This document shows, one piece after another, positions 725 to 48,206 of a DNA stretch of 64,000 bases; position 1 is the stretch's first letter; each line of letters starts with the position of its first letter. The notes below the pieces were generated by a model. That model searched no databases and was not told where the DNA came from. It worked only from the letters and a program-made list of their open reading frames with translations. Source of the DNA: Paraspadella gotoi (Eukaryota > Animalia > Chaetognatha). A program made the translations under genes and the position numbers. The stretch covers positions 8,429,225 to 8,493,224 of the forward strand of contig CM119269.1 of the NCBI GenBank assembly GCA_051294375.1, in the 5' to 3' direction.

Positions 725-913
725 TGAAGACAGAGTGATAATTGTTATATGTTAGTGACAGAACCGTTCAATATAAGCAGTCCCTGAGCTTCGGATCAGG
801 CTGTAACACCGTGTTACAGGCGGATTAAGCGCCTCGTCCCTCTTAACTGCGAGGCGGCCACAGGGCTAGAACCCCGGACCTTTGGGTTGGGAGGCTAATG
901 ACTTGCCACCATA
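725..913 (-). mobile_element. tRNA-head + twister element, copy 1 (internally deleted)
   Basis: Near-identical to the copies at 15367, 22024, 45825 and 47974. Flanked by ATAT/ATAT 4-bp TSD. Twister module at 777-850 carries a T1 mismatch. Confidence 0.85.
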
Positions 914-11109: not shown

Positions 11110-14100
11110 ATGATGCTCATCCTTATATTGGAAATGGTGTTGAACGTAGTTGACCTCGGAACGGATCTCCTCGTGACGATCGAGAGTCTCTTGGCTCAAC
11201 ACTCTTTCGCCAATCAAGTCGGCCGCGCATTGGCCCTCGTCCTTCTCTGTCACGGTATCTGTTCAGCCACTCACGCCTTAATCAATTTGTCCCGACACCC
11301 GAATCTTTACCCTCGCCTATGGAGATCGTGGAGGCGGCGGTTGATGACGCTGTCGGCTCACTTGGCCGGCATCGGTGTGGTTCCTTTAGCCCTGGATCTT
11401 ATACTCGATGAGAGAGCTCTCCGGGCTGAGACATTGACTCCGGAGTTTGAAAAGCGTCTTTCCTTTAAGGAAAAAGTCTTAGCCGGTAACAACGTTATCC
11501 ACACTCTCGTTGAGTCATTTCCTCAGCTCCTCATTCAGTGCGGAGCCCTGGTGGTCGCTTGGACCAGCTCGACAGATGAAATGTGCTTGACGGGATTTCG
11601 GAAACATCATGCAGGTTTTTTATGAGTTGCGCAAGTAACGAAAAGTTGTAGAAAGTAGAGAGTGGTCTCAAATGAAAGCTCTTACTGTGAATATGAAGAT
11701 AAACATATAGAATTCCAAATTGTGATCATTTTTAATAAAATTAATAAAAATTATTAAATTTTTTTAAAAAAATTAATTAGCATTTAAATAAATGCCTTGT
11801 ATCGGATTTTGCTAGATTATGGGATTACTTCAGGATTTTATAGGTTTCAAAAATAGCACTTTTACTGTTTTTTTTTTTTTTCAAATCCTCTCTTGCATAA
11901 AGAATATTGAAAGTTTTAACAAACTACCATGAAAAGTATTTTATTTTAAAATTGTATGGATAATGTTTTGCTTTAGGTTACAAGCTCTGTCATATGACTT
12001 AAGCACCCAAAAGTGGACCAAAGGGTTTAGTGTAAGAGAAACAACGGATCCCAAAACTGTTATGGCGTCGACATCGATGGTATTGTTTCTGAAGCAAATG
12101 CCCCCTGTTACTGCGAATCTCTTTGGTCTGGAGGTCCTTTATTCTGTGGTTGGAGGATCAAAAAGGAAGAGGGGATTTTTTAAAAAATATGCAAATGGTG
12201 GTTGGGTGGTGGGCTTTGGAACCTGCAGGGACCACCCAACTGTGTACCATCACACTTAACTAGATTGACTGTGAGAAGATTTAACTCGAACTGACGGTTG
12301 TTTAGCAAGTGATTAACTGTCCCAAGCATTTGGAATGAGCTGGAAGGTAGAATTTCGGATTATTGCCATAGATGACGTATCTTAGCAACAGCTGGCGCAT
12401 AGGTGTGTTTATGTGTACTGTCAGTAACCACTAACCAGCATGACTGTTAGGGGGTTGAAACCAGAACTCATGGTTGGTTTAACAGTCCAAGCCGTTGTGA
12501 CGAGCTGGAAGGGTATTAAAATTGTTTTAACTTTGGTTTTTATTGTTGAGTAGTATAAGTTGAACCGAGAATAAAAATATAATACTTGATCAGGTTCGTC
12601 CCATAGTCTCAATTGTCATCTCGACTTTTGGTGTCGCCAAACTTGCAGCTGCTCATCACATCAAAGAATTTGATCTTGATTCAGAAAACTTTATAAAAGA
12701 AAAATCTTTTCTCGTTCTCGGAACAATTCAAGGTTAGATCGCCATTTCTTTAATTTAGTCTGACCAGGAGAGCCACTGAAACTGACTCCACAAAACATTT
12801 CAAAGCTCATTTTTAACTCTGGGTTTCTCGTGCATTTTGACTGTAAAATAGACTTGCACCGTGCCATACATTGAAGTATATTATTTTGTTGACTCCCCTT
12901 GAAACATTCACAGGTTTTCGTTCTTAAGCCTTTTAGTATTCGTGAAAGAGGATCAGGAAAACGGATAGCATTATTTTTGTGGAAGTTTTTATTATCCGGA
13001 TTTTATCTTCAAAGAAACTGGCAAGCTCTGGCGACATAATTTTTGTGGTGCGCAATTTATAAAAGCTAAATAAAAGTGGGTGCTAATAAAAATTAAACAG
13101 TTTTTTCAATCATTTAAAAGCTTGTTCATAAAAATCGGACAAGCCAGTTTCCTGGCTCTCCTTAAGTTTATCTTTAATTTTTTTTTTTTTGTAGTTTTTT
13201 ACATTTTTCACGAGCTAATACTACTCAAAAATTGATACTTTTTTTCATGTATCACATTTAGGATTGGTTGGCCTAAGTAATTTGCTTTATTTTACATACA
13301 TAAAAATGCTTAACCTCTCCATATGGTTAGCGTTTTTAACGCCATTTTCCCTCTTGCGATTAATTCATATAAACCATCTGAAGTCACTGTGGAAAACATT
13401 GTGGCCAACAATCCATGAAGTTCGTCATCGAAAAAATTTGGCTGTAAATCCACTATTAACTTTGCCACTATGGAACGTTCTATGCTTCTCCGCAATTCAT
13501 ATCCTCGAAAAACATATTTTTTCGGACAAAGAACGGTTGAGGAATGGAGGTTTTAGCTGGGGTCTGGTAGTTCTTGAAAACAATGTTGCTTCAAGAATAC
13601 TCTTCTATCAGGATATTTGGAACACAAGCTCTCTTTCCGCAAGTGTCAGTTGCTATAAAGCAGAAGTTTTTCAGGATGTAAAAAAGTGGGATGCTTTGTC
13701 ATTTGGACATTTGCTGGGTTTTTTATGCACCAAATGCACTCGGCCCATGCAGATGATTTACGAGCCATTACATATACATCTGGAATTGGCCAAACCTAAT
13801 TTCATTATTTATCTGGGAAATTATCGTTTTCTTAAACCAAAATATTATGCTTTGGTTTTAATACTTTTGGTAGACATGATTACTGGCTTGGTTTATGTCT
13901 CATCAATTTTTGTTTTGAGGGTAACTATCAATAATTGTTATGAAAAATTTTAAATCATTTAAAAAATCATGCATTGTCGAGTAAAAAGTAAAGTAACAAA
14001 TTCTCCTTGATTGCGCTTCGAGTACTCACAGAGAAACTCTGGATTCCTCCCGAAGGAATTCCTCCCCAAGGGATTCCTCCGCACGATGGAACTAAGCTTT

Positions 14101-15280
14101 ATGTGCATACTATGTTTCACTCTTGTGTAATTATTAATCACATTAGGATATGCGTCAACCAAAGAAAGTCAGTGGCGCAACATCTTAAACTTGCTCGTTT
14201 ATGTTATCTTAAATTTTTAAATTTTAGGGAAAGTCCAAGGACATTTTCGTCGCTTCTTTGATTTGGTCATTTCCCTTCATTGTCGTCCTGCTGAACATGG
14301 TGACTTCAGTGCAATACCATTTGCTTTATATTGGATTCCCAGGTTTTTCTTTGAAAGGTTGTCCCATTTTATCACAGGAGACTATCGCTGTTTTTCAAGG
14401 TAAAAAATGCGACATAGTAAGAGCAAGGGGCAGAAAAATTCTAGAAATGGGACCAGCAGTCTATATCTTGGGAAAGTTTTGGGAGACTGTTCCAATCATG
14501 GCCACGTCTATAGCATCAGCGATATCCACTGACCGAGTTTGGCGTCACACCATTGGTTCTTTGAAAGCCTCTCTTGCTGCAGGAGGGTCTCTTATGATCG
14601 CTGCTATAATGCTGCCCATCTTTACATTCTCACTAAGCATCAACTCTATGAATTCGGGCTATTCATTGAGCAATACAATGGGAAACCTTTTGACTTATGC
14701 TGCAGTCTCCGAATTTTTTCCTCTTTTTTTCTTTGCTTCTTTTTCGCCTCTTGCCATGGGGACATCGAGGTACCTCCTGGCCCTCCTAAGCCATTTCGCT
14801 TCAAACATGCTTGGGTACAGAACTCAGGCATTCAGCTTCATCGTCATGTGGGCACTGTTGTTGTGGTCCTCTCTCACTCTGTATACAGAATCAAGAGTGA
14901 GCGGCAAGCACCAGTTACAAATTTTGGACCAAACGCTCATTGGCATGGAATCGGCTATGGAATGCTGGTCATCTGATGCAGTAGACTATCACGAAGAGAT
15001 AAACGGCGTTGAGCTTATTTCGCCAACATCAAAGGGAGTTGTTATGATCCAAAAAAAATTAAATTATTGTTGTGAGCAGTCATGTCGAGCCGAGTTTATG
15101 TTTTCGGTCCTGGATAAAAATCACACTTCGAACCAAAAAATATTTCGCGTTTTAAAAAGTTTTAAAACTTATGTGAATGAATCGATCAAAGCCTACAATT
15201 ATCCATTGATGGCATTTTTTGGTTTTCTGCCGGGACTTTTCAGTTTTTTGTTTCTGATTTTTAATCAGAATAAAAAATAA
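11110..15280 (+). CDS. XK-related (XKR scramblase-like) multi-pass membrane protein, paralog 1, ~846 aa
   Basis: Exons 11110-11614 (alternative ATG 11020), 11816-11843 (28-nt microexon), 11977-12133, 12594-12732, 13262-13920, 14228-15280 give one open frame. XK hallmarks: D.GTD in TM1, ESFPQLLIQ, VSIVIS..GVA. Colinear with paralog 2. Exon 2 and exon 3 boundaries are least certain. Confidence 0.72.
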
Positions 15281-15366: not shown

Positions 15367-15597
15367 TGAAGAGACAGTGATTATTGTTATGTGTTAGTGA
15401 CAGAACCGTTCAATATAAGTACTAAGCAGTCCCTGAGCTTCGGATCAGGCTGTAACACCGAGTTACAGGCGGGTTAAGCGCCCCGTCCCTCTTAACTGCG
15501 AGGCGGCTACCGTCTAGAACCCCTGACCTTTGGGTTAGGAGGCGAATGACGAGGCGAATGACTTGCCTCCGGCACCAATGGCCGCTGATGAACGGTT
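15367..15597 (-). mobile_element. tRNA-head + twister element, copy 2
   Basis: Same family. Lacks the terminal hairpin end and has small internal duplications. Confidence 0.85.
15426..15499 (-). ncRNA. Candidate type-P5 twister ribozyme (best-preserved core)
   Basis: Minus strand reads GCAGTT-AAGA-GG-GA-CGG-GGCGCT-TAA-CCC-GC-[P3 hairpin]-CCTGA-TCCGAAGC-TCAGG-GACTGC. P5, P4, L4 (UNNNAAGC), T1 (CCG/CGG), T2 (GC/GC), GA and UAA are all in twister order. Predicted cut between 15476 and 15475. Confidence 0.72.
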
Positions 15598-16487: not shown

Positions 16488-17215
16488 TAGGGTGAAGTGA
16501 AAGTTTGGAATCAAAATTTAGCAGTTATATCTTGAAAACTATTATATTAGTGAATGCTAATCTGTAATTTTTTTTTATAAATATAGTAGCCCAGTCAGCT
16601 TATTTTGTATATTGTACTACCCTTATATAATGTCAAAATTTCAAAATAGTTTTTTTTTTTAATTCTGAGATCAGATTCAGATTCGTCTTAAAAAGTTGAT
16701 AAAAGAAAATATAAATATTTTTCAAAAATTATATCATTAAGTAGATTAAAATTATAAAAAAATATATTTTTAAGCTGGAAATTGTAGTTAACCTTTTTTG
16801 TTGTTAGTGTGAGATTTAAAGGAAAATAACGAAACAACAAATTGTTGTAAAAACAAAATTTTTGTTATTTTCCATAACGTTGGAAATTGAAAATTGGCGT
16901 TTTAAAAATAGTTTTTTATATTTTTAACAAAAGAATTCTACTTTCTTTTATCAATTTTTTGCAAGGAATCCAAATCCGATCTTAAAATTTAAAAATTTGC
17001 ATTTTAAAATTTTAGCTGGGATTGAACCCGGTACCTAGTGGTCATGAGCTGATAGCTTTACTCAATGAGCCACCGGGTCACAACTGAAAGTGTTATGATT
17101 CTAGGCGGGGTGAACCTAGGCAATGCCCGACTACAAATATAGCTCACTGGTACCCACTGATGAATAAAATTTAAAAACAAATTTACCAAAGTATTTTTCT
17201 TATTTTTTATTTTCT
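16488..17215. repeat. AT-rich dispersed repeat (MITE-like), second copy at ~29632-30020
   Basis: Shared agggtgaagt.aaagtttggaatcaaaatttag...atatagtagcccagtcagcttattttg...aaatttaccaaagtattttt. Confidence 0.6.
17014..17080 (-). mobile_element. tRNA-derived head of the second SINE family (not a functional tRNA)
   Basis: Reverse complement gacccggtggctcattgagtaaagctatcagctcatgaccactaggtaccgggttcaatccc matches 38982-39043. Confidence 0.7.
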
Positions 17216-18605: not shown

Positions 18606-21600
18606 TTAAGTCGCCCTCACAGAGGGGCGTTGAATGACAAACTTTTCCTCCCTTTCTTCCGCTCCCGCTGATTCGAGCGAAGCTTTAGACGCTGCCGACT
18701 TCAGTCCTTCTCTCTGCAGCGGCGGTACGTGCGACGGGAAGCCGGTCGACTGCTCGATGTAGTACTCGTTGTCGTACTGGCGGCGGGGAAAAAAGGAAAC
18801 AAATCGACAAATGAAAATTTTGTAATTACTAACGTTAATAAACCAAGTTTCATATAATTTCTGATATAGATTAGGAAGTATGTTTTTGAGACACTTTTTC
18901 GTTGCAAATTCCGGATTCTGATTGAGCGTACGTGTCAGTGACATTTTATTGTTATATTAATCCCGAAATTTACAACGTCATATATTGAGCATTGGAGCAA
19001 CATATCGAAAAGCACAGTGAACTTACAGTAGGAATTCCCGCCACGTCGGCGTCCACGTAAAAGGCTTCCGTTTCACTGTGGAAGAAAAAAAAAACCGAAA
19101 AAATAACAACAATTAAAACCAACAAAAAATAATAAATCAACCAACAACATTGATTATAATTTTTGATGCCAACGACAATGATATTAATCGAGGCTTCAAC
19201 GAATTACTTCCCCCCATTTCACAAAAAAGAAAATCGCTTCTCTTTCTTTTCACTTTTCATTTTTTATTTTCGCTCCTCATCTTTTTATTTTTATAAAAGA
19301 AAATCGCTTCTCTTTCTTTTCACTTTTCATTTTTATTTTCGCTCCTCATCTTTTTATTTTTATAAAAAGAAAATCGCTTCTCTTTCTTTTCACTTTTCAT
19401 TTTTATTTTTGCTCCTCATCTTTTTATTTTTATAAAAAAGAAAATTGCTCTCTTTCTTTTCACTTTTCATTTTTATTTTCCGCTCCTCATCTTTTTATTT
19501 TTATAAAAAGAAAATCGCTTCTCTTTCTTTTCACTTTTCATTTTTATTTTCGCTCCTCATCTTTTTATTTTTATAAAAAGAAAATCGCTTCTCTTTCTTT
19601 TCACTTTTCATTTTTATTTTCGCTCCTCATATTTTTATTTTTATAAAAAGAAAATTGCTTCTCTTTCTTTTCACTTTTCATTTTTATTTTCGCTCCTCAT
19701 CTTTTTATTTTCATAAAAAGAAAATCGCTTCTCTTCTTTTTTCATTTTTATTTTCGCTCCTCATATTTTTATTTTTATAAAAAGAAAATCGCTTCTCTTT
19801 CTTTTCACTTTTCATTTTTATTTTCGCTCCTCATCTTTTTATTTTTATAAAAAGAAAATTGTTTCTCTTTCTTTTCACTTTTCATTTTTATTTTTGCTCC
19901 TCATTATTTTTATTTTTATAAAAAGAAAATCGCTTCTCTTTTTTTTTCACTTTTCATTTTATTTTCGCTCCTCATCTTTTTTTTTTCATAAAAACAAAAT
20001 TGCTTCTCTTTCTTTTCACTTTTCATTTTTTATTTTCGATCCTCATATTTTATTTTTATAAAAAGAAAATCGCTTCTCTTTCTTTTCACTTTTCATTTTT
20101 ATTTTCGCTCCTCATCTTTTTATTTTATAAAAAGAAATCGCTTCTCTTTCTTTTCATTTTTATTTTTCGCTCCTCATATTTTTATTTTTATAAAAAGAAA
20201 ATCGCTTCTCTTTCTTTTCACTTTTCATTTTTATTTTCGCTCCTCATCTTTTTATTTTTATAAAAAAGAAAATTGCTTCTCTTTCTTTTCACTTTTCCAT
20301 TTTTATTTTTGCTCCTCATATTTTTATTTTTAAAAAGAAAATCGTTCTTCTTTTTTTTCACTTTTCATTTTTATTTTCGCTCCTCATCTTTTTATTTTCA
20401 TAAAAAGAAAATCGCTTCTCTTTCTTTTCATTTTTATTTTCGCTCCTCATATTTTTATTTTTCATAAAAAGAAAATCGCTTCTCTTTCTTTTCACTTTTC
20501 ATTTTTATTTTCGCTCCTCATCTTTTTATTTTTATAAAAAGAAAATTGCTTCTCTTTCTTTTCACTTTTCATTTTATTTTTGCTCCTCATATTTTTATTT
20601 TTATAAAAAGAAAATCGCTTCTCTTTTTTTTCACTTTTCATTTTTATTTTCGCTCCTCATCTTTTTTTTTTCATAAAAAGAAAATTGCTTCTCTTTCTTT
20701 TCACTTTTCATTTTTATTTTCGATCCTCATATTTTTATTTTTATAAAAAGAAAATCGCTTCTCTTTCTTTTTCATTTTCATTTTTATTTTCGCTCCTCAT
20801 CTTTCTCGCCCTCCATCTTTTCTCTTTAATTCTAAACTCTTTTAGTCCATCTCTCGATTCTCTTAGGACTACAATACATAAAATTATCAAGCGTTTAAAT
20901 TCATTTAATGAAAATGCCATCTTGCCCCTATCATATGGTCACTGACATTTGACCTCCATCCCTCTCACAAATTAATAATATAGCACTCAAAGCAAGCTTT
21001 CAATCGTCTTCCTTTCTCTTTCCTCTATTTCCCTTCCTCCCTTTCCTCCCTATTCTCTTTTCTCCCTTCCCTTTCCTGCCCCCACCTCAACTGCCCCACG
21101 TCCGTCTGCGCGATGAACGTCACAATGACGGCGCAAATGATTGCCAGAAAGATGGCGACCCAGGCGACGGCGTAAGACCAAGACAAATGGTACATCAATC
21201 CATTCTGCGTCGTCTTGTCCATCGAGAGAATAAAGACCTTGAGTAGGGCAAAGTAAAAATCCAAATAGATATCTTTTGTATAAAACATATTTTGTAAAAT
21301 ACATATTTTTAATAGTTTTAACTTTTAGTTATCTTATCATATTGTATAGTTCTAGACATATAAATAATTAAAAATTGCAAAATGTTTTTTTTAAAACAAA
21401 GTAATTTTTTTTCTATTTAAAAGAATAATTTATCAACGATATCGACATTCAATGTCAAATTTAACAGGAGGAATCCCGTGTGGGAGGAATCCAGTTGGGA
21501 GGAATCCCGTGTGGGAGGAATACCACGGCCACCGATATCATTCAAAAACATACAAGTATTTATAAATTATTTAGATTCCTTCAATAATGAGAGAGTCGCA

Positions 21601-22967
21601 TCGAACCTTGAGGTAGTCGGCCCTGTTGACTTTTTCTTCGCCGATGACGCTTAACGTCTCCGTTTCGAGTTGATGACGCACGTGGAAGAGAATGATGGCG
21701 ATGAGGACGACGAGTGCGGCCAAGATGGTGAAGGCGATGCTGCTCTTAAGGATCCTGGATTGAGGAGGGGCGGGGTGAAAGTTGAGCGCGGAAAAATTCG
21801 AAAAGGAAAAAAATTAAACAATATATGGAAATCCAATTTAATTACTTAAACACATCGAATAGGTTTTGCCTACATAGTCACTCTGATGAATATTAAGGAA
21901 GCGTTCCTTGGAAGAGATTATTTTCGGCGTGACAGGACCAAGGCAGGATGACTTATCCAAGCCAGATATAAAATCCTTACCCTTTCCCAGTTCTAATCCT
22001 CAAACAGATTAAATATATTTATTTATGGTGGACTAAAATCCACCACCCGTTCATCAGCGGCCATTGGTGCCGGAGGCAAGTCATTCGCCTCCCAACCCAA
22101 AGGTCCGGGGTTCTAGCCCGGTGTTCGCCTAGCAGTTAAGAGCGATGGGGCGCTTAACCCGCCTGTAACACGGTGTTACAGCCTGACCCGAAGCTCAGGG
22201 ACTGCTTATATTGAACGGTTCTGTCACTAACACATAACAATAATTACTGTCTCTTCATATTGTACCAATTTCATAAACGAAATAAACTTTGTGCAAGTAT
22301 GTATTATTCTTGCAGCCATGGTAGCGGTTCTGGGCTTGGAATCAGGCTTGGCCCAAAAGGCAGTTTACAGCCGTCCTCACTCTTCCCGTACGACAGGTAC
22401 TTGGTTGGGTTTGGACCCGGTACCAGGTTGTCATGAGTTGATGGCTTTTACTGTAAACAGGAGGTTGGAAAATGCTCTACAAGAAGATATCACAAGAGCG
22501 AATAAGGCGCTACATCGACTGAAGATGACTTCTGTACAACTCCATTAGCCTTCTTTAGGAGCCATGAAACGGGTCCGCGGCTTGGAACTTGGCGGTGTAA
22601 TCCGAACCTCACGCTTCCCGAAGGGTAGGTATTTGGTTAAATTCTAAGCGGCCTGGAGCTAATGGCTTTCATTTCATGAGCTACAGGGTCACGAGTCACG
22701 ACTGAGGAAACGATGATTAATTAAGGAGTAAAACTGGGGGCAATACCCGCTGCATAACAAGCAACATCACCAAATATTTGTCCCTCATGGTTGCACCTGC
22801 GCATGAGCCACCAGTAGCCGAAGCAGAGCAGCAGCAGCGCCACGACGAAGAAGATCATTCCGAGGATCATCATTGAAAAGGTCGCTCGCAGGAGATCGTA
22901 GTACCTTTCCTCTGACCCGTCTAATGGTAAGTTGTTGTCGCGGGGTAGCTGGGAAGGTAAGGTAAGA

Positions 22968-23011
<44 letters not shown>

Positions 23012-23568
23012 TAGGATAATAAAACAAACTTGAAAATCGATGTGAAAGCATTTGATGCCAAGTTCGTTTTCCCAAAGCTTGCTACCCTGCTTGTCGATCG
23101 GTTGGCCGTTAGTCAGTGACGCTTCGGGAAAGCATTCACGGAAAAGTCCGTAGTGACGCGTGAACAACTCGTGACGATCGTTGCTGTGAATTGTAAAATA
23201 TTTTGGTTTAGTGTCTCAGTATCATATTAGTTTATATTCTCTCTATTTTTCATAGTTAAAAAAAAGGAAATATGAATGTCTTTTTCCCTACTAAATGTGA
23301 TTTTTAAAGAGTTTTCAATCTGTCAACTCAGTGTAAAGGTTAATTTTTACCTCTGGGAAATCATGCTTTAAAGACAAAAATAACAACCAAATAACGCAAT
23401 ATTACTATTTATTATACATTATTAATAAATTAATTACCTGCCAAAACTCCTTTGATTCTCCATTTCCATCCAATGATCCGTGGAAAAAGCAACGATACAA
23501 GCGACCAACGCTAAGATCAATGACAGGACGGCGATTCCCGCCAAACAATTACGTCGTTCCAATGTCAT
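18606..23568 (-). CDS. PMP22/EMP/claudin-superfamily tetraspan membrane protein, 7 exons, ~318 aa
   Basis: Exons 23568-23438, 23183-23030, 22948-22797, 21754-21607, 21237-21086, 19075-19027, 18776-18606 join in phase. TM1 followed by STDHW, HYGLFREC...C loop motif, four hydrophobic segments, YHLSWSYAVAW before TM4. Confidence 0.88.
19220..20802. repeat. Minisatellite, ~70-bp unit, ~22 copies, in a claudin-like gene intron
   Basis: Unit ttataaaaagaaaatcgcttctctttcttttcacttttcatttttattttcgctcctcatctttttattt recurs at 19501, 19571 and onward. Confidence 0.95.
22024..22257 (+). mobile_element. tRNA-head + twister element, copy 3 (full length)
   Basis: TATGGTGG...CTCTTCA with TATT/TATT TSD. tRNA-like head ~22057-22128 (A box TGGTGCCGGAGG, B box GGTTCTAGCCC); twister module 22132-22205. 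Confidence 0.88.
22315..22695 (-). mobile_element. Two degenerate copies of the second tRNA-derived SINE family
   Basis: Reverse complements share aaagccat.agctc, tacct, gggaag and ccg...catggct with the 38980 copy. Confidence 0.6.
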
Positions 23569-26395: not shown

Positions 26396-27413
26396 TTTTT
26401 AGTCGGATCTGCTTATCAGCAGATCTGAAGAGAGAGAACGTGAATGAAAAACTCGACTTTATAATTCACTTGGTCGGTCCGTCGGTCCGCCCCCTCAATA
26501 TTGTCGGGCACTAACTTATATCATGTCAGAACATCGAATTATGATAAATTATGCAAAAAATATTATGTCCGTCCGTCCGTCCGTCCGTCCGTCCCACCTT
26601 AGCAAAAAACACCAATTACTCGTGATTGGATGGATGGATTTGAATGAAATTTTGTGTGTGGGTAGGGAAGTGTGTGATTGAGCTGGATATAAAGTTTCGA
26701 TGGAATCGTCCGAGTGGAAATGAGTTTAAATGGAAAAAACAAAAAAATATAATTCACAATTTGAATACCAATTGCTCATGAGTGGATGGGGCGATTGACC
26801 TGGAATTTTGTATGTGGGTAGGAAAGTGTGTGATTGAACAGGAAAACAAGTTTCGATGGAATCGTTTGAGTGGAAATGAGTTTAAATGGAAAAAACAAAA
26901 AACCTGTTTCACTAATTGATTATGATTCTTTTTCTTTTAATATTAAATGTATATGCAGGATGTATTAATAAATCAAATAATTAATCAGTTAATTAATAAC
27001 TCGTGATTGGCTGGTTGGATTGGAATAAAATTTTGTGTGTGGGTAGGAAAGTGTGTGATAAAGCTGGATATAAAAGTTTCGGTGGAAACGTACGAGTGGA
27101 AATGAGTTTAAATGAAAAAAATATGAGTCAATATTTACCCATAATAGATTGAGATGAAATTATGTGCGCGGGTAGGAAAGTGTGTGAAGAAGCTAGATAT
27201 AAAGTTTTGACGGAATTGTGCCAGTGGAAATGAGTTTAAATTGAAAAAACATAAGTCACATTTACTTGAATCTTTATTATTTATGATTACTAATAAATGT
27301 TTTAATTAATTAATTAATTCATGTGAAGAAATGATGCAATTTAAAAAAATGATGCAAATTGAAAAAATGATGCAAGTTAAAACAATCTTAAAAGCATAAG
27401 GATCGTCGCAATT

Positions 27414-27448
<35 letters not shown>

Positions 27449-29192: not shown

Positions 29193-29273
29193 TTTTATAA
29201 TACTAGCTTAGTTAAACTACATATTACATAATACATATCTCTATAAAGCCCCTCCAGGCTCCAGCCCTAAAAA

Positions 29274-32200
29274 ATGGAAACCGTACACTTGCTTCTCCTC
29301 TTGCAAATTTGTCTCAACGTTTTCGATGTGATTACGGACATTCACACGTCGGCCCGGAAAATCCGCTCGGGTCAGCGTTACAACCAAGCAGTTGGGTGGG
29401 CGTTGTCCCTCGTGTTGCTCCTTCACGTTGCAGTCAGCTCGTTCTACTCGCTGTCGATCATTTTGAAGAACAAAAGACAATACGCGAGATTCTTTAAGAA
29501 TTGGATCCGAACGGCGGCGATTGTCGCCCTACATATCGCTGGTTTGGGCAACCTAGCTTTAATGGTTGACCTCTTCATTGATGAACGGGTATGTAAAAGT
29601 TTTGCAGTAACATGACGTAACATTGACTAATAAGGGTGAAGTAAAAGTTTGGAATCAAAATTTAGTAATTATATCTTAAAACCTAATACTAATCTTTTTT
29701 TTCTTTTACTAATATAGTAGCCCAGTCAGCTTATTTTGTCTTGTACTACCCTGATATAATATTAAAATTTAAAAAATGTATTTTTGGCCAATTTATTGAA
29801 AAAAATTTTAAAAAGGATTATACTGTCATCTTTCCCCAATTTAGTAACAAATTGAAATTCGGTCTTAAAATTTCAAAATTTTTATTTTAAAATTTTAGTT
29901 TATTATATATTCATTATTATATATGAAAAGCTCACTGGAACCCAGAAAATATAAAATGAAAAATTAAATTTACCAAAGTATTTTTATGGGTTTTTTACTA
30001 TGCTCATTACTCAATTTTAATTTTGTAAAGTTTATTATTTTTAAATCTCTCTATTGACCACAGAACGCTGTTAATGGTTTTCACATAATTGTGACTAATT
30101 CAAAATTAAACGTTTTTCATATTATGGGGTAAAACAATAAATATCTAAGGTGAATAAGAATCCACTTACCATTCAGGCTGCTTGGTCGGTCGGTCGCTAA
30201 TTTGCCTTCTACCCCTAAGACCTGAGGAACCACATTATTGGTTAATTATTGGTTAATAGAGTGTAGTGAAAGTTACTTACGGAAACTCTAAAAGTCAATT
30301 ATGAACAACATACCATCAGTAAACATTAATTTGTAAAAAAAATTAATCTTATATTTTTAAATTTTTGCAGTAGGCTATATTTATATATAGTACTATCCTT
30401 ATAAAATCTAAAAAATTTCAAAATAGGCTTTTCTTAATTTTGATTGCAGATTTAAATTTCTCGTCAAAAGTTGATAAAAAATATAAATCATTTTTAAAAA
30501 ATTATTTTATTAAGTGGGTTAAAAATTAAAAAAACTATCTTTAATATATAAAAAATTAATTTTCAGCTTAAAATATAGCTTTTTCTAATTTTTGACCCAC
30601 TTAATGAAGGAATTTTTCAAAAAACTGTTTTGAAATTTTAACATTTATTGGATTAGTACTAGTATAAATATGGCCTACAGCATAAAATTTATTATAAATT
30701 TTTTTATTACATAATTGTTCATTAGTATAATGTTGTTCGTTCCTCACTTTTAGAATTTTAATTAAAGTTAAATTTAGAAATTTTACTACGCCTTATTGGT
30801 TAATACTGTAGAAGACAAAAATACGGGAAAATAAATGAAGGGAAAAAGGTGAAGGATTGTGTTTAACCAACGTAGAAAGAATTTTATTTCTAAGATCTAC
30901 TGTTTGAAATATTTAGTTCTCAAAAGAAAAGTCGCATTCTTTAATGATTGAAATATTTTAATCAATAACTTTAACCTTGTTTTGTCTATGGTGGTAGTTT
31001 TAATGCAATCTTTAACTTTGTTTTGTCTTTAGTCTTAGCTTTTTTTGATGCTCTGATTTTGATGTACTAAATCAATTTGTTGAATTCGAAATAAAACGCA
31101 TATATAACCCGCCTGTAAAATAGTTTAGGGACTTTTAATTAAGATAATATTTATGTGGGAGATTGTATTAAAAACATTGTTTGAGTACTTGGCTCTAACT
31201 TAATTTATACCTTGTAGATTTCGCTATCAAAAATAAGAATCAATCCAAATCACGTGATTTTAATAATAAAATAATTGGATCAGAAGGGCCTCGTCCAATC
31301 AGAATCTAGAAATAAATAATTACCAATGAAAGCATAGGACGAGTTTGAGAGTTAAAGCTACTAACGTTATTAGTATTCTATATAAAACCGAATATTAATT
31401 TAGAAAATTATTAAAATATTTATAAACTATTTAACAATTTAATTTATAATAATTATATTTTGTCTCTTCTTTTTTATGAGGATAATAAAGAGCAGTAATG
31501 GACTGTGCTGTAGGCTCCAGTGGAGCACTGCATTAAAGGCAAATTAACCCAGCCGTCTCATTTTTAGTCGGATCTGCTTATCAGCAGATTCCGACTCTAT
31601 AATGCACTTTGTCGGTCCGTTGGTCCCACCCCTAAATCTTGTCGGTAAATCATTTTTATCACATCAGAACATCATATTATGCTAAATTAAGCAAAAAAAG
31701 ATGTCCGTCCGTCGTGTCCTGTCCTGTCTTCAATTATTCGTGATTGGATGGTTGGAATAGAATGAAATTTTGTGTGTGGGTAGGAAAGTGTGTGATTGAG
31801 CAGGATATAAAGTTTGGATGGAATCGTACAAGAGGAAATGAGTTTAAATGGAAAAAACATAATTCACATTAACTTAAATCTTTTTACTAATTTTAACCCA
31901 TAATTACTCGAATTAATCATAATTGGATAGATAGATTGAAATTAAATTTTGTGTGTGGGTAGGAAAGTGTGTGATGAAGCTGGATATAAAGTTTAGATTG
32001 AATCTTGCAAGTGGAAATGAGTTTAGATGGAAAAAAACATAAGTCACTTTTATTTGAATCTTTTTAATAATTTTATTCCATAATTAATCGATTTATTTAT
32101 AATTGGATGGATAGAATGGGATTAAATTTTGTGTGTGGGTAAAAAAGTGTGTGATTGAGCAGGATATAAAGTTTTGTTGGGATCGAGGAGTGGAAATGAG

Positions 32201-33408
32201 TTTGCATGGAAAAAACCAAAGTCAAGTCGACTTGAATTTTTATTATTTATGCTTACTCATGAATGCCTTAATTAATTAATTAATTATTTAATTAATTAAA
32301 TTAATTAAGTGAAAAAATGATGCAAGTTAAAATATTATTCATATTGAAAAAATGATGCAAATTGAAAGATTGTTGCAAGCTTAAAGAATGATGCAAGTTG
32401 AAAGAATGTTGAAAGTTGAAAGAATGATGCAAGTTGAAAAAATGATGCAAGTTGAAAGAATGGTGCAAGTTGAAAGATTGATGCAAGTTGAAAAAATGAT
32501 GCAAGTTTAAAAAATGATGCAAGTTTAAAAAAATTATATAAGTTGAAAAATGATGCAAGTTTAAAAAATGATGCAAGTTGAAAAAAAAGAATTGCGTGTT
32601 AAAAAAATGATATGAGTTGAAAAAAATGATGCAAATTTAAAAATAATGCAAGTTAAAAGAATGAATGCAGTTGAAAAAAATGATGCAAGTTGAAAAAATG
32701 ATGCAAGTTAAAAAAAAGGTTGCAAGTTAAAAAAATGATGCAAGTTGAAAAAATGATGCGAGTAAAAAAAATGATGCAAGTTGAAAAAATGATGCGAGTA
32801 AAAAAAATGATGCAAGTGGAAAAAATAATAATATTTGAAAAAATTATTTGTACTTTATTTGTAATTATTTCTACTATAGTATTTATTTATTCATTTATTT
32901 AGCTGATTCCCGCTTAATTATCGTGGGCAGATCCGACATTGTTTGCTCAAACTTGTGAGTTAAAAACTAACTATTGACAAACTTTTGTAGAAAGATTTCT
33001 TTATTCTTTATTCTTCTTTTCAAACTCCTCTTTAAGTCCTACCTCACATCGGATCTCAATCAATTGCAATGGTATCGCTACAAAAGAGATATTTTCACTG
33101 CAACAAATTTCATCCACATTTTCTTGGAGTCATGGCCGCAGGTTTTGATCCAGACAGCGGGCATCCTCTTGAGCTGGACTAGCGACTCGAGAATGGTGTG
33201 CCTTTACGACTCTTGGATGAACATAACGGAAAAAGGACCATTCAAACAAAAGTTATTCACTCATTTGTTGACCGAGGAAGGGCCTAAGAACACAAGCTGG
33301 CCTTGTCTGTGCGATGTAATTAACTCCAACGCAAACTACCAAAGGTCATTTGGTTGAGAATTGGGCGAAATGCTCTTTGATGCCCCCTTGCCGTATGACG
33401 AAGCAGTG

Positions 33409-33441
<33 letters not shown>

Positions 33442-38863: not shown

Positions 38864-38979
38864 TGAACATCGCGAATTTTGTCCTTGTTTTATCTCTCAA
38901 AATAAAACTTTCTATGTCTCGGTTCCGAAGAGCTGGTGTTATCATTGCAATAAGTTCACTACGCATGATATCCTCGGTC

Positions 38980-39142
38980 ATGGCCCGGTGGCTCATTGAG
39001 TAATGCCATCAGCTCATGACCATTAGGTACCGGGTTCGATCCCCAATGGTACCTACCCTGTGGGAAGTCTTAGGACGGCCGTAAACCGCCTTCGAAGCCA
39101 GGACCCGTTCCATGGCTTCGAGAGGTGTTAAACGAGTCAACC
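38980..39142 (+). mobile_element. Second tRNA-derived SINE-like family
   Basis: Head GGCCCGGTGGCTCATTGAGTAA...GGGTTCGATCCC (A/B boxes). Related reverse copies at ~17014-17080, ~22315-22455 and ~22555-22695. Confidence 0.75.
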
Positions 39143-39750: not shown

Positions 39751-39816
39751 TGTAATGTACAATTATAAACCTAAAGTGCGCGATCAAACAACGCAGTACC
39801 AAATTCGTTTCCCTCT

Positions 39817-42772
39817 TTAATTATCCTTTTCCAAGAACGCCCTCTTAATCTCCCGTCTCAAGATCTTTCCCGACGGCGTTCTCGGGATCTCCCCGACAAA
39901 CTCTACTCCACCGCGCAGCCACGAGATGGCGTTGACGCGCGACTCGACGAAACGCTGAAGCTCGGACTCGGTGGAGCCGCGACCCTCCTTCAGGGTCACG
40001 AAGGCGCGGGGCACTTCGCCGCCGACCTGTTGTGAGGGCATGAGGATGATTAGGAAGAGGAGAAAGAAAGAAAGAAAGAAAAGAGGAAAGAAATAGAGAT
40101 AGAAAGAAAGAAAAAAAGAGAAAGGAAGAAAGAAAAAAAAAAGAATATTGAGGGACCTGCTATAGCAGAGTGATGGTAAGAGTGATGGAGGCCTTAGACC
40201 ACCAAAGCCTGTCCACAGTCAGGGGCAAGATAGCTTATTTATTAAATGAATGGATAATTTGTATATTAATAGTACCAATTTCATAAAGAAAGAAAAAAGA
40301 AAGAAAGACAGACAGAAAGAAAGAGACAGATAGAAAAAGAAAAACAAAAAGAAAAAAAATATTACTAAACTAACCTCATGCGGAACTCCAATGACAGCCG
40401 CATCACCAACCGCAGGATGTTCAAGCAACAACCCTTCTAATTCAGCCGGGGCCACTTGGTGTCCCTTGTACTTTATGAGCTCCTTGACCCGGTCAACAAC
40501 ATATAAGTGCCCGTCAGGCTCGATGTAGCCCACGTCACCTGATCTCAGCCAGCCTTCTGAATCGATAGTTGCCGTGGTCGCCGCTGAGTTGTTTAAGTAG
40601 CCCTTCATAATCTTAAGGGGAAGAGTTTTGGGGGCAAAAATAGTTTTAAGATTCGTTGTAAGGACATCGCATGTACAGGTTAATTCCATATCAAAGTAGA
40701 GTCTTTGTGGGTATTACAAGTGCATTTATTTTTTTGCCAATATTTCAATTCACATAGCGGAATCATTTTACAGAACATTTCAATTACAATAAATGCAATT
40801 ACAATAAATGCACTTGTAATACCCACAAAGACTCTCTACTTAAATAGTTTTAAGATTCAATTTTGATTACCCTGATTAAACTGAGGCTGGTTAATTCAAT
40901 TTTTATGCTATAGTATTCTTAAATATATCTCATTCATATTATATTTTAAAGAGCTTTTAAAAGTTGTTAATATTAATTATATTTATGTAAACTTTTTTTT
41001 AAAATTCATCAAAAAAAAGCACCAAATGATTAAAGAAAAAACATTAAGTTTTAATTGAGAGATCATTTTTAAGACTACTTTTTTCCCCTTATTGCCAAGG
41101 CAAATAAAAATCAATCAATATAAAATTTGAACATTGTGTATAGACTTTCGATTTCGTTGTTTATGGGCATTAGGAGAAAAACTATTTTTATTTGTTTTGA
41201 CAACGAATTTTAATGACAATTTGACAGACATGTTTCGACTCTGTATCTTTAGAGTCTAAACACTGATGAAGACTCTAAAGATACAGAGTCGAAACATGTC
41301 TGTCAAATTGTCATTAAAATTCGTTGTCAAAACAAATAAAAATTGTTTTTCTCCTAAAATTTGAACAGAAAAATAATTTTTTTTTTCACAAAGAGTTTTC
41401 AAGATTTTAAAAATCTTTACATGGCGTTTAAATGTGTCACATAAGAATAAGAGAATTAAAAATGAATTGTTCCAATACTATTTCACAATCACCTGAGATC
41501 CCTTGACGAGGACCTCTCCAAGCTCTCCGCCGGACACATCCCCGCCCGTGTCGTCGACCACCCTCAACGAGGTGTTGGGAATGGGAACACCTGCTGATCC
41601 GGGCTTAACGGACCCAGTTGGATCTAAGGTGGCCAAAGGTGATAGTTCAGTCATGCCCCACATCTGAGAAGGATTTTTTTTTACTTTTAGGAATCCCTTT
41701 TCATTAAAATTTCATCTCTTTTTACTCTTAAGAAAATTCCAATAATTGATGTTCCTGTTACAAATTAATTTTATCAATTTTTATACCTTAATTTTTAGTT
41801 GCGCCGCGAGTACTCGATCGGTCTGTCGGTATGTATGTCTGTCGGTCTGTCCCACTAACGTTAAAAATGCATATAATTTGCCTTGAGTTGGTTGCTCATT
41901 TGTTAAGACATGTCATGTCATGCCATATCATATCATATCAAAAGAAGTACACGTGAAAATAAAGTCACTGCGGCGTAACATATTGGATGAACCGATCTTG
42001 TTTGTTTGTAACTCACTTGTCGAACATTGTCTCGCCCAATAAGTTTCATAGTCTCTTCTTGGAGTTCTTTTCTAAAAATAATAAAGGAAATGTTTATTTA
42101 CATTTACCAGCTTTATGTATAGGCTTTCGATTTCGTTGTTTCGTTGTACGACTCTCCTCGCACCGAGCGTCGCCCAAAACGACGGCTTCAGGAGGAGGGA
42201 GAGGAGTCTGTGTCTCCTGTATCAAAACAGGCAAGAACAGGCAACCGGCTGACTCACCGTCAGGTGAGAGGAGGGCCGTCGGCAGGCTATATCAGGCCAA
42301 AAGAGATATACGAGTGGCACTTGGCATTTTTCCAAGTGGAACCTTACCAGACCCCAGAATGTCACGCTCTACAAATATATCCTCTCACCTATGACAGGCC
42401 AATGACCCGATCTTATCGTCAACGTCCTCCATTTGCCCGGCTCATTTTTGAGCTCTTTCTTTAACTTACTTTCACTAACTCTTTACTTACCTATCCCTCA
42501 CCACTTATTCTTCCATTTCAATTTCACTTCATTTTACTAATTTATTTTCACTGTTGTTAATAGTAGTATTACTTAGTTAATCTTTATGTTTACTTATTTA
42601 TTCTTATTTTTCTCTGTTGTACATTACTAAATGTATTAATTTCATTTGTCTCTCTTCTCTCTCTCTCTCTCTCTCTCTCTTTTCATATTCACAATCTTAC
42701 TTCTCCTTCCCCTGTCCTTACCTTGAACTGTCCTCACATCTGACCACTATCTCTCACTCAATTCTTTGTTGG

Positions 42773-42843
<71 letters not shown>

Positions 42844-45767
42844 TCATCTTCACTAAACTCAACTTTCACAGAGAAAATTGTTGTAAAATCACTTGCTGAT
42901 GAAGACTCTAACTTTGTAAGAGTCGAACAAGTCCGACTTACTTGTCAAAAAAAATTTCGTTGCCACATTAAAACTGTTTTTCCATTTTCAGCTAAATTTA
43001 GTTTGTTAATTGATGCGATAATCCTTTCTTTTTCGTTGTTTATTGATATTAGAGAAAGCAAATTTTGAATTTTTAACAACGATTTTAATTAATAGTTGGA
43101 CATGTTTCGGCTTGTTTGCTTCAAGCCTTCATCAGCATATGACATTCAATAATAAATTTTGTGTAAAAGAAGAGTATGTGAGAGAGAGAGAGAGAGAGAA
43201 GAGAGAGAGGGTAAAAGTTTTTTACAGCAAAGTGGTGAGACAGAATGTGGTCAGATGTGAGGACAGGTTGAAGGTGAGGGCAGATTGAGTGAGTTGTGAA
43301 AAGAGTGAAACTTGTTAAAGAGAGAGAGACGAGACGAGAAACAAAACAACAGGGATAAATAAACTATTAATTAAAAATCGTTGTTAAAAATTCAAAATCT
43401 TTGCTTTCTCTAAGTTTTTTAATTGAAAAGCGTAGTGACATTCAAACATAAACAAACACGCAGTTCTGCATGTGAAGTTATTAACTTGATAGAATAAATT
43501 GTATTTAATTCATATTAAAGCTCGAGTGATAATTTCAAAGTCATGAGCAAGTCAAGAATTTAGCCAGGGGCAGTGAAAATCCTAAAAACTACACATTTAC
43601 TATTCAAATTTTCAAATCAGTATTATCCTTTTCTTTTCTGTTACGTCATTAAGTCATTACGTCATTTTATGTCATTAGTCTCGTCATTAGTTACATCATT
43701 TTATGTCATTTTAGTCATGTTTTATCCTTTAGTGTCAATTTATTATTTTAAGTCATTTTATGTCCTTTTAGTCATATCTGGTCCTTTTATCATTACGTAA
43801 TTACGACATTTTACGTCCTGTCATTTTAGTCACGTTTAGTTCTTTAGTCATTACGTCATTACGTCATTTTACGTAATGATGTGATTTTGGATCCTCTGTT
43901 TTGATGATTTTAATATAACACAAAAAAAAATTATCCGTTTGAGCTTCCCACGCAGTTTCTCTCTCACATCATAAACCGACTCACGACAAAGGGGCCGCTC
44001 CAACCACGATATCTCGGACGGAAGACAAATCGTATTTCTTGACCATCGGATGTTTGTTGAGAAAAACCAAAACTGGCGGAGCGACCGGCAGAGAATGGAG
44101 CCGATAGCGAGAGATTGTCTCCAGAAAGATCACAGGATCAAACTTGCGCATCATCACTATCGGGTTTCTCAGGTGAAGATGAAGGACGAATAGCGCGATT
44201 TGCGCGACGTGAAATATGGGGAACATGGCCAAGACGTTGTCCACGTGGCCGAACAGTTCTTTCCTGAAGATAGTAAATTCAAGATGTTCCAATATTTAGC
44301 ATAATTCCTAACCTAACCTTTATCTTTAACCTTATCCCTAACTCCTAACTCCTTCAGTGTCTACCTGCACAATTGACTGAGACAAGAGATAAAAGAGCCG
44401 TGTGTCAATTCGACTCCTTTTGGCAAACCCGTCGTTCCTGAAGAAAATGGGATGAACGAAACGTGAGTCATTGGATCGATCAAGTCAAGCCGCCGGGTCC
44501 TCGAAGGAAAAGCATCTCCGGTGTCGCGTAGCATTTGAGAAATGGACATTTCCGCGCGGCTTTCCGAGTTGTCATCGTTATCGATCAGGATCAAGGGAAC
44601 GTTGGCCAAGAGAGGATCTTTTAATGCCTCCGCGGCAACGTTGTACAGACTTCCATCGGCAACAACCATTTTTGCTGAGGTCATCATCAACTGAAACCGA
44701 AATAAAATGGCTGGTCACATTGTGAGAAGGACATGCAAATAACAATTATGAAATTGGTGAAACTAATAACAAAAAATTGTCATTTATGAAATTGGTACTT
44801 GTATTTAGGTATTTGTCTAATAAATAAGCAATCTTTCCCTTGAGTTTGGACAGGTTATTGTGGTTTAAGGCTTCCATCACTCTTAAAAGATAATGACAGC
44901 AGGACTGTGCAAACTTTAAAAAAAGACTCCATCACATCCTTATTCATTTAAAGGTACCTGACTTCCCTATCAATGAAGTGGTATAATGTTTCAAAGAATG
45001 TTTTATAATGTACATTGTATAATATTGTAATAAAAAGTTCTTAAAATTATGGGACTATCGAGGTTTTTTTGGTCAATCTTGGCTGCCGTTACCGAGTCCC
45101 CAGTCCCCTCTGTGAGTTGCTTTGCCTTCTGCATTACTGGATCAGGCGGACCACTAGTTATCGGTGGATTAACCAACTCGTCACGTTCTTAGTGTACTTT
45201 TTGGCTCGAATATAATGCCAAATAAACCTAAAATTTTAAAACTTTTGATGAAACCTGTTTCCTCAGTTCGGCGGCATTAAACGCCGGATTGGCCGGCGTA
45301 AAGGCGGCGCCAATTCCTAACGTTGCCAACATGATGGATAGACACTCGATGGAATTTCCCGCAAACAACGCCACCGTATCCTTGGCACCAATCCCTCGCT
45401 TCACCATCGCCGACCCGATGGACGTTGCGCTTTCTTGCAGCTCGCCGCGAAAGACGGTGCGGCCGGATTCGGCGTCGACGATGGCGACGGCCTCCGCTGA
45501 AGACGAATCGTCGTCGTCGTTGTCATCTTCAAAAACGAAAGTGAAGATATCGATTTCTGGTACAACGACTTTCGGAAAAGGCGATTGGTAAATTTTTTGT
45601 TTCTTTGTCGATGTGGAAAACGACGAGCACCAAGGCTGAATTGAAATGGAATCGTTGCCAACCTTGGCCGTGACCACTTGATCTTTGATACGCGAAGAAA
45701 TTGAGGAGACGAAACGAGGTTGAAAACCGCGATTGTAAAGAGGAACTGAGATTCGCCGCAACCACAT
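39817..45767 (-). CDS. Firefly-luciferase-like / 4-coumarate-CoA-ligase-like acyl-CoA synthetase (ANL superfamily), 7 exons, ~596 aa
   Basis: Exons 45767-45255, 44690-44365, 44263-43985, 42071-42017 ([18 protein letters not shown], absent from the ORF track), 41663-41493, 40611-40375, 40026-39817. Motifs [47 protein letters not shown]. Confidence 0.93.
40695..40840. repeat. Small foldback element (~36-bp inverted arms)
   Basis: agtagagtctttgtgggtattacaagtgcatttatt / aataaatgcacttgtaatacccacaaagactct(ct)act. Confidence 0.75.
41170..41357. repeat. Near-perfect inverted repeat (arms 41170-41257 / 41270-41357), Penelope-type inverted pLTR fragment
   Basis: Arms are reverse complements with ~2 mismatches and a 12-nt spacer; contains the hammerhead. 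Confidence 0.8.
41260..41303 (+). ncRNA. Minimal hammerhead ribozyme inside an 88-bp inverted repeat
   Basis: aca CTGATGA a gactc taaagataca gagtc GAAA catGTC tgt. Confidence 0.8.
41793..42003 (+). mobile_element. Short second HINE-like family
   Basis: TTTTAGTTGCGCCGC ... (GTCN)n ... GCGGCGTAAC + hairpin + CTTGTTT. Related 5' ends on the minus strand at ~9795-9880 and ~7515-7600. Confidence 0.55.
42090..43412. mobile_element. Penelope-like element remnants in inverted arrangement, with two hammerheads (42893-42936 +, degenerate GAA; 43096-43138 -, intact core)
   Basis: ctgtcctcacatctgaccac (~42730) is inverted at ~43247; 43052-43096 is inverted at 43363-43412; hammerhead cores present; short ORF remnant containing RPMTRS. 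Confidence 0.6.
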
Positions 45768-45824
45768 TTTTCAACGCTGAAAATTTACCGACTCTGCATA
45801 AATTTATTACTATTAATATACTAG

Positions 45825-46053
45825 TATGGTGGACTAAAACCCACCAACCGTTCATCAGCGGCCATTGTTGCCGGAGGCAAGTCATTCGCCTCCCAACCCA
45901 AAGGTCCGGGGTTCTAGCCCGGTGGTCGTCTGGCAGAGGGACGGGGCGCTTAACCCGCCTGTAACATGGTGTTACAGCCTGATCCGAAGCTCAGGGACTG
46001 CTTATATTGAACGGTTCTATCACTAACTCATAACAATAATTACTGTCTCTTCA
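45825..46053 (+). mobile_element. tRNA-head + twister element, copy 4
   Basis: CTAG/CTAG TSD; 5-nt deletion in the P5/junction region. Sits ~57 bp upstream of the acyl-CoA synthetase ATG. Confidence 0.88.
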
Positions 46054-46409: not shown

Positions 46410-46952
46410 ACAAGTTTGAGCAAACAATGTAGGATCTGCCTCCGATAATTAAGTGGTAATCAGCTAATCCGATGATAAATCACGTTCATTCTTTCTGACT
46501 TTCAATTTGTGATCTTAACAGATCATAACAGATCATCACATAACAAATCATGAGATACTTCTTTATAAATTTAAGAAAAAATCTATAAATCAATTAATCT
46601 ATTAATGAACCAGTAGCTGCGCCAATAATAACTTACATATTTTGGTCAAATTGCCTAATTTGGTCAAATTACATAATTTGGTCAGCTTTCATAATTTGGT
46701 CAACTGGCATGATTTGGTTAACTGGCATTATTTTGTCAACTGGAAAAATTTGGTCAACTGGCATAATTTAGTCAATTGGCATAATTTGGTCTACTCGCAT
46801 AATTTTGTCAACTAGCAAAATTTGGTCAACTGACATAATTTGGTCAACTGACATAATTTGATCAACTGGCATAATTTGGTCAACTGGCATAAATTGTCCA
46901 CCTTGCATATTTTGATTAACTGGCATAATTTGGTCATTCAATAATTTTATCT

Positions 46953-47008
<56 letters not shown>

Positions 47009-47973: not shown

Positions 47974-48206
47974 TGAAGAGACAGTAATTATTGTTATGTG
48001 TTAGTGACAGAACCGTTCAAATAAGCAGTCCCTGAGCTTCGAATCAGGCTGTAACACCATGTTACAGGCGGGTTAAGCGCCCCGTCCCTCTTAACTGCCA
48101 GACGACCACCGGGCTAGAACCCCGGACCTTTGGGTTGGGAGGCGAATGACTTGCCTCCGGCACCAATGGCCGCTGATGAACGGTTGGTGGATTTTAGTCC
48201 ACCATA
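47974..48206 (-). mobile_element. tRNA-head + twister element, copy 5 (full length)
   Basis: Full-length reverse copy, flanks ATGT/AAGT (3 of 4 match). L4 reads TTCGAAGC (G-U in T1). Confidence 0.88.

Follow-up and report, generated by a model that had tools for sequence, protein, structure and literature searches.

In the literature as far as it was accessible, retrozymes are described with hammerhead ribozymes, Pol III-type TRIMs without ribozymes, and animal twisters at the 5' ends of RTE LINEs. Plant LTR retrozymes (Cervera 2016, PMC4918200) carry a type III hammerhead in non-coding LTRs of 300–400 bp, leave 4-bp target-site duplications (TSDs), occur as solo LTRs and form demonstrated circles, and the accessible part of that paper describes no tRNA-derived part. 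Animal Helenus elements and TRIMp3 (Kojima 2024, PMC10886601) have a tRNA-derived part in a short unit, 4-bp TSDs, and many solo LTRs, and their consensus LTRs do not all begin with TG or end in CA; Helenus LTRs are tRNA-like, with a T run after the tRNA part in those examined, and Helenus is known with two LTRs, a PBS and a PPT. The accessible text reports no ribozyme: "twister" occurs nowhere in it, and 12 motif strings led to nine passages, none twister-like; Helenus consensus sequences beyond the scope of that search may include twisters whose loops are spelled differently. According to these two sources, animal Helenus and plant retrozymes insert by Gypsy-type integration, whose mark is a constant 4-bp TSD. 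Animal non-LTR retrozymes and Schistosoma Sm-alpha, which joins Pol III to a ribozyme, are described in the accessible parts of PMC7229834 and PMC6765202 as hammerhead units of 150–450 bp, arranged in tandem and flanked by larger TSDs; there, amphibian retrozymes and Penelope elements have hammerheads with a short stem and a palindromic loop, which cut in dimeric form. The twisters of the RTE element Perere-3 (Liu 2021, PMC8501958, in part) lie at the 5' end of an autonomous LINE and have their termini in P1, which the flank completes; unpublished twisters at RTE 5' ends are also mentioned in the accessible part of PMC7761336.

The 64-kb window, by which we mean the whole stretch of DNA analysed here, contains a repeat, family 1, that unites retrozyme, Pol III-type TRIM and animal twister traits. 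It is a 233-bp non-coding unit in which a tRNA-like region is joined to a type-P5 twister sequence, and we are highly confident of this core of tRNA-like part, twister and mobile element. Like the plant LTR retrozymes it holds a ribozyme in an LTR-sized unit with 4-bp TSDs, but the ribozyme is a twister instead of a hammerhead. It shares the short unit and the 4-bp TSDs, and a putatively tRNA-derived part, with Helenus and TRIMp3, and its TA start parallels their unconventional ends; where those Helenus LTRs have a T run, family 1 has the twister, and a T4 run is absent from all five copies. Its length falls within that of the animal non-LTR retrozymes, and its P1 can be compared with the palindromic loops of the amphibian and Penelope hammerheads. 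CCGCCTGTA stands at its T2/P3 junction as in the Perere-3 twisters, and occurs at 1,076 places in the accessible Schistosoma twister supplement, whereas the family 1 twister is of type P5, internal and non-coding. With the Rfam model Twister-P5 (RF02684) it has in common the order of elements, GA, UAA, the GC/GC pairing and U-NNN-AAGC, but phage members of RF02684 mostly have a P1 hairpin of 14–20 nt, compared with 6 nt in family 1. Judged by its parts, family 1 would function as retrozymes do, and its construction is that of a Helenus LTR; we file it under neither, since its ribozyme is not a hammerhead and the window shows no two-LTR copy. The combination of tRNA-like region, twister and mobile element was found in no report within the literature compared, which also took in the accessible parts of PMC10085705, PMC13725137 and 10.1101/2022.07.19.500677; most subscription papers, Repbase and the original twister alignments fall outside that scope.

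Blastn and alignment confirmed five family 1 copies, with 90.8–97.8% pairwise identity, as the first-pass annotation had proposed, together with its order of hairpin, closing stem, tRNA-like part and twister elements. The consensus it gave fits the individual copies less evenly: the 5' hairpin is complete in only 3/5, the twister core of the copy at 22024 is damaged, the copy at 45825 has a shortened P5, and the A box is weak. Three findings go beyond that first reading: TSDs of 4 bp, a P1 that is self-complementary, and two related families. The copies, and the features of the one at 22024, are as follows.

22024..22257, plus strand: family 1 copy, TATGG...TCTTCA; twister core with three changes
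725..913, minus strand: family 1 copy with an internal deletion between GGTGG and GGAGG; TSD ATAT/ATAT; one T1 mismatch
15367..15597, minus strand: family 1 copy without the leader, beginning at the closing stem; intact twister 15499-15426, predicted cut 15476/15475
45825..46053, plus strand: family 1 copy; TSD CTAG/CTAG; core intact; P5 short of 5 nt
47974..48206, minus strand: family 1 copy; TSD ACTT/ACAT (3/4 letters); T1 with one G.U
22020..22023, plus strand: left 4-bp TSD TATT of the 22024 copy; right copy at 22258-22261
22027..22044, plus strand: 5' hairpin GGTGGA/TCCACC, part of the leader that precedes the putative Pol III start
22045..22053, plus strand: closing stem, 5' arm; first base is the putative Pol III start
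22057..22129, plus strand: tRNA-like region with 7-bp acceptor-like stem, CCC anticodon-like loop and B box at 22109-22119; anticodon stem broken
22132..22205, plus strand: type-P5 twister sequence with P5, P2, GA (22144-45), T1, P1, UAA, GC, P3, P4 and L4 (22187-94)
22149..22154, plus strand: P1 hexamer GGCGCU, self-complementary, 6-bp duplex of -8.3 kcal/mol, the same in 5/5 copies
22155/22156, plus strand: predicted twister cut at UAA
22212..22220, plus strand: closing stem, 3' arm

The changes in the 22024 core are G>C in P2, a C>U wobble in T1 and U>C in L4, and because of these three changes we take the copy at 15367 as the cleanest.

The unit runs from TATGG to TCTTCA with sharp ends and no tail, its terminal sequences being TA...CA, not TG...CA. 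Three of the four two-ended copies are flanked by exact 4-bp TSDs (ATAT, TATT, CTAG) and the fourth matches in three of four letters; from the 4-mers of the flanks this would be expected by chance with a probability of ~7e-5, and fully matching cross pairs numbered 0/12. Since the consensus of loose read ends suggests a central-TA target on both sides, a chance match would be somewhat likelier than that figure, and in the AT-rich flanks the duplication also matches at 6 for one copy and at 8 for another. Contigs aligning to one family 1 copy numbered 8,171, 15,394, 2,680 and 964 in four runs from the same organism, and summed depth on the element was ~10^4 times that of the flanks in these runs. 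Depth dropped sharply at 47973/4 and 48206/7, beyond which the loose ends were unrelated (agreement ~0.4). Because summed depth over-counts, and given a density of five copies per 64 kb in the window, we put the copy number at thousands, perhaps 10^4, which supports a non-coding, high-copy mobile element. A head-to-tail joint was found in 4/4 DNA-listed runs (X1, X2, X5, X6) at about single-locus depth (53 in X1 compared with 20–50 in the flank). None of the five window copies has two LTRs, a PBS or a PPT, as far as could be seen, the read tables being able neither to reveal nor to exclude a conserved internal region, and a Pfam scan of 21 of the 186 window ORFs returned no reverse transcriptase or integrase family. 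An X6 contig reaches the left TSD of the 45825 copy (45824) and continues with 12 unaligned letters, a weak hint of an empty allele. Run X9 is likely RNA, because it contains a spliced contig of a neighbouring gene; 964–1,027 of its contigs fell on the aligned stretches, but this coverage says nothing about transcription of the element, as a second repeat is covered in a proportion similar to that in a DNA run. Relatives elsewhere were sought in metagenomes, where the 23 loci matching a pattern all lay in GC-rich bacterial DNA and did not resemble the element; in viral sequences, where element-specific patterns gave 0 matches; and in prokaryote genome scans, with 0 relatives and, for another pattern, 8 chance matches. 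Run X10 of organism B had 0 contigs aligning to the element, which is no proof of its absence there.

Several lines of evidence point to a twister in the ribozyme part. A structural descriptor that recovers 50/66 phage twister loci and 1/23 metagenome loci gave two matches in the window, both within copies of the element, compared with 0/100 window shuffles and 0/40,000 element shuffles. A covariance model (CM) built from 25 phage twisters, and from no window sequence, ranked the five family 1 copies 1–5 among nine window matches, with scores of 22.6, 21.8, 17.7, 14.8 and 10.9 bits, the intended register being used in one of the five alignments (the top one); its best score on 65 kb of GC-rich bacterial control DNA was 11.3 bits. 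UAA, GA and L4 U-NNN-AAGC stand in P5 order, complete in 4/5 copies (22024 has C for U), while T1 is fully paired in 4/5, and T2 as well as a 5-bp P4 in 5/5. The T1 letters, CGG/CCG, recur in four phage twisters passing RF02684, among 26 pattern matches. P2 is less regular: in each of the three families it can be drawn either as 2 bp followed by an A.C or as 3 bp interrupted by a bulged A, compared with a full 3- or 4-bp P2 in 40/51 phage matches, and any changes in P2 length have been suggested to perturb the twister active site (PMC5408937, in part). The Rfam check proposed at first reading went against the note: Rfam, including RF02684, returned no twister match (whole window at E<=1, two copies at E<=10), whereas phage loci tested in two sets exceeded the Rfam cut-off in 18/20 and 11/12 cases, the latter serving as controls. 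The type-P5 fold itself, claimed in the same note, was upheld by the descriptor, the phage CM and covariation, and we count family 1 among the twisters on grounds of its descent and anatomy, not of its Rfam result. If the palindromic P1 works as predicted, such variants escape Rfam, and a class of genomic ribozymes may go unseen. Other readings of the same letters were set aside by eye: a hammerhead from the minus-strand CUGAUGA has no GAAA after stem II, and an HDV fold of the tRNA-like part does not close P3. An alternative twister register (GA GGG) was rejected for a T1 mismatch and the lack of T2, and a simple hammerhead scan of the window gave no match. The phage contigs (L036-L101, L104, L108, L112, L119) often carry several P5 twisters each, four with a CGG/CCG T1.

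The sixth match of the phage CM (22324-22383, E 2.6) led to a second family with four copies, and a joint profile led to a third with two.

22314..22493, minus strand: family 2 copy B, partial tRNA-like head and twister; T1 GGA/UCC, P1 CGGCUG, P4 partly broken
22520..22704, minus strand: family 2 copy A, decayed; tandem partner of copy B at a distance of 232 nt; terminal TCTTCA as in family 1
38975..39117, plus strand: family 2 copy with tRNA-like head (CAT loop, GGTTCGATCC); P1 CGGCCG at 39076-81; P3/P4 partly deleted
17017..17086, minus strand: family 2 tRNA-like head alone
40174..40287, plus strand: family 3 decayed copy; T1 UGG/CCA; P1 AGGCCU at 40189-94; no tRNA head found
44783..44891, minus strand: family 3 decayed copy; T1 UGG/CCA; P1 AAGCCU

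Families 2 and 3 share the layout of family 1 in different letters and appear older than it, family 1 being the youngest of the three. Unguided alignments set both in the twister register. T1 reads CGG/CCG in family 1, GGA/UCC in family 2 and, by eye, UGG/CCA in family 3, and the closing stem is also retained across families with different letters; T2 of family 3 has AC where GC is expected, and a tRNA head was not detected in that family. In the unguided alignment, 9/24 pairs change on both sides, including 2/3 in T1 and 2/3 in P1. Pairing is found in 80% of cells, compared with 24–44% in slid controls, and 0/500 shuffles reach the score, for an alignment of two family 1 and three family 2 copies, which are few, related and partly decayed, with a structure drawn from the same rows and two rows one column off in L4. 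T1 letters that change and still pair, with a six-base self-complementary P1 in each family, give strong comparative support to a type-P5 twister that would have been under selection. The family 2 tandem lies 67 nt from the 22024 copy on the opposite strand; as a two-LTR copy it is unconvincing, with a spacer of ~27 nt and no PBS or PPT seen. Family 3 relics, including one at 20894-21014(-), terminate in GTACCAATTTCATAAA, and this 3' motif also occurs by itself at 1001, 22262 and 48451, the 22024 copy being inserted just upstream of one of these. Several relics are 3'-only, a hint of SINE-like 5' truncation. Weak profile matches at 34059-34176(+), 30148-30227(+) and 45139-45184(-) (E 0.018–0.17) resemble decayed family 1 relatives.

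Six bases, too few to make a P1 hairpin, separate T1 from UAA in all three families, and the words they form are GGCGCU (5/5 family 1 copies), CGGCCG and CGGCUG (two of three family 2 cores, the third decayed), and AGGCCU and AAGCCU (family 3). Every word but AAGCCU is fully self-complementary, with duplex energies of -6.3 to -10.7 kcal/mol, and at position 44872 in the AAGCCU copy the letter giving AGGCCU makes up 73–84% of depth in X5, X6 and X9. Self-complementary words account for 216 of the 4096 hexamers (5.3%), and with a single pattern the P1 was fully self-complementary in 4/4 window matches versus 0/8 bacterial chance matches. In phage P5 twisters the P1 segment is 14–20 nt long in 45/51 and forms a hairpin, the short ones looking mis-parsed; in family 1, P1 can form 1 bp within a monomer and 6 bp between two molecules. 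For the monomer, a competing hairpin is predicted at -27.6 versus -19.8 for the nested twister fold, 7.8 kcal/mol better, and buries T1b (unpaired 0.01 versus a median of 0.67 in 51 phage matches), which argues against monomer activity in these models; in the dimer T1b stays largely hidden, at ~0.28 unpaired. The modelled energy gain of the dimer (-5.5) is not specific to the palindrome, as an equal gain is reached with 57/60 permutations of its letters. The self-complementary P1 and the analogy with the dimeric hammerheads lead us to predict that the family 1 twister cuts when paired with a second copy, although a dimer may not be needed, because P1 is dispensable in other twisters, P1-less ones cutting well (PMC5408937, in part). 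If the palindrome works as predicted, it would make a natural dimeric twister, a counterpart of the double hammerhead, with cleavage tied to the transcription of two repeats.

The tRNA-derived origin asserted in the first-pass annotation is borne out weakly. A CM from 19 phage tRNAs placed two family 1 copies as the top two of 17 matches, with weak E values of 0.31 and 0.38, full length and in a register exactly on the proposed 73 nt; the 22024 copy had E 5.9, and an nhmmer profile from the same tRNAs gave a best E of 0.38. Rfam returned no tRNA match (whole window at E<=1, two copies at E<=10) and ARAGORN reported 0 tRNAs in the window. GGTTC is present; the A box is weak and lacks TRGCY; the B box of family 2 is clearer. 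The acceptor-like stem is Watson-Crick in copy 725, through its 3' strand, and G.U-paired in others, and both variable positions (48102, 48105) are common variants in reads. We take the region to resemble tRNA-Gly. The spacing rule of Pol III promoters would place the transcription start 22 nt into the element, on the A that opens the closing stem. With such a start a plain SINE could not copy its own leader, whereas an LTR can.

We lean towards an LTR route for family 1. Fixed ends, the absence of a tail, 4-bp TSDs, monomeric copies and a leader of 33 nt before the tRNA-like part point to integrase-type insertion, as in Helenus or plant LTR retrozymes, and the TSD, the ends and the 33 pre-tRNA bases fit a solo LTR better than a SINE; on the same grounds the Sm-alpha- or SINE-like framing of the earlier note was not sustained. 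Our leading explanation, held at slightly under even confidence, is that the 233-bp unit is a solo LTR left by a miniature retrotransposon of Helenus type, which uses a Gypsy-type integrase and a twister cutting as a dimer. In a two-LTR parent, Pol III would start ~22 nt into the 5' LTR, where the closing stem begins, and, meeting no T4 run in the unit, would continue through to the second LTR. A common helix of 6 bp would then form between the two P1 hexamers, and each twister would cut at U/AA. The monomer released between the two cuts, with 5'-OH and cyclic phosphate ends, might be ligated into a circle or copied directly by the partner's reverse transcriptase. A Gypsy partner would copy and insert the released monomer, and LTR–LTR recombination would yield the solo copies observed. 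Only tentatively would we go on to an old, diversified animal lineage of LTR retrozymes with a Pol III promoter and a twister active solely as a strand-swapped P1 dimer, a double twister.

Some of the same observations can be read differently. A tRNA-headed SINE or non-LTR retrozyme, with twister-cut Pol III transcripts that a few tandem masters may supply, and LINE- or Penelope-type insertion, seems to us unlikely, even though it would account for the tRNA-like head, the head-to-tail joint in 4/4 DNA-listed runs, the tandem pair of family 2, the common 3' end of family 3 relics and the presence of CCGCCTGTA in more than 1,000 twister entries from Schistosoma, where the twister is linked to an RTE LINE (in the accessible supplement). 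Copy 15367, which begins at the putative Pol III start, fits it too and is also compatible with a microhomology deletion. The depth of the tandem joint is about that of a single locus. The start does not lie at the tRNA head, an A-rich or simple-repeat tail and arrays are absent, 33 nt precede the tRNA-like part, copies are monomeric, and the TSD is constant at 4 bp, where animal non-LTR retrozymes have larger TSDs and tandems (PMC7229834, PMC4918200, in part). Solo copies, 4-bp TSDs, the palindromic P1 and the head-to-tail joint would be explained jointly by a replicon made of LTRs only, in which head-to-tail master dimers give unit circles via the dimeric twister and an integrase cuts the CA/TA junction, with no internal region; but a primer site is not evident, the accessible literature holds no precedent, and the rare tandem may be a chance insertion beside another copy, which makes this quite improbable in our estimation. 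The element might also be a non-autonomous DNA transposon, Helentron/HINE-like or of a TIR-less cut-and-paste type, with an old tRNA–twister cassette as passenger. A hairpin at its terminus and an inverted repeat just inside it would be HINE-like traits, but rolling-circle elements are not known to leave a 4-bp TSD, and here one is present; a terminal inverted repeat is absent and the closing and acceptor stems vary through G.U pairs in an RNA-like manner, so that we give this very little credence. Compatible with any of these is a twister that was active in the lineage's past, with family 1 no longer cutting as monomer or dimer. The competing hairpin, the short P2 and the missing Rfam match speak for such a loss. 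Against it, the youngest family retains T1, T2, P3, P4, P5, GA, UAA and AAGC, and in four runs GA, UAA, T2 and AAGC are free of variants exceeding the 3% listing limit, while those in T1b/P1 are CpG-type and reach up to 7%; because family 1 is young, this conservation reflects the founder's state and not current selection. We consider inactivity rather doubtful and predict that the family 1 twister probably cleaves at present.

Other features of the window were observed alongside the element. The host appears to be an invertebrate animal, judging from its intron-bearing 4CL-like, claudin-like and XK-like genes. A fragment at 44899-45044 belongs to another high-copy repeat, with a summed depth of 17,000–51,000 in X5 and X6 and conserved loose ends, and an inverted repeat of 88 nt at 41170-41357 (99% complementary, 12-nt spacer) is MITE-like or a fold-back; a long inverted repeat called at 57818-58428 was an artefact of N runs. 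Tandem repeats comprise a 70-bp array at 19141-20892, repeats of 156–180 bp in two clusters (26454-27420 and 31592-32405) and two 18-bp arrays (32293-32901 and 46595-46990). A claudin-like gene at 21025-23215(-) contains the 22024 copy in a likely intron, and two XK-related genes lie at 10984-15280(+) and 29271-36236(+), with long second ORFs that have no Pfam matches. The spliced contig in X9 belongs to an intron-bearing 4CL/luciferase-like acyl-CoA ligase gene at 39775-45770(-), whose 4CL-like exon is 40–44% alike to its best matches, with insect and bivalve matches at 29–53%.
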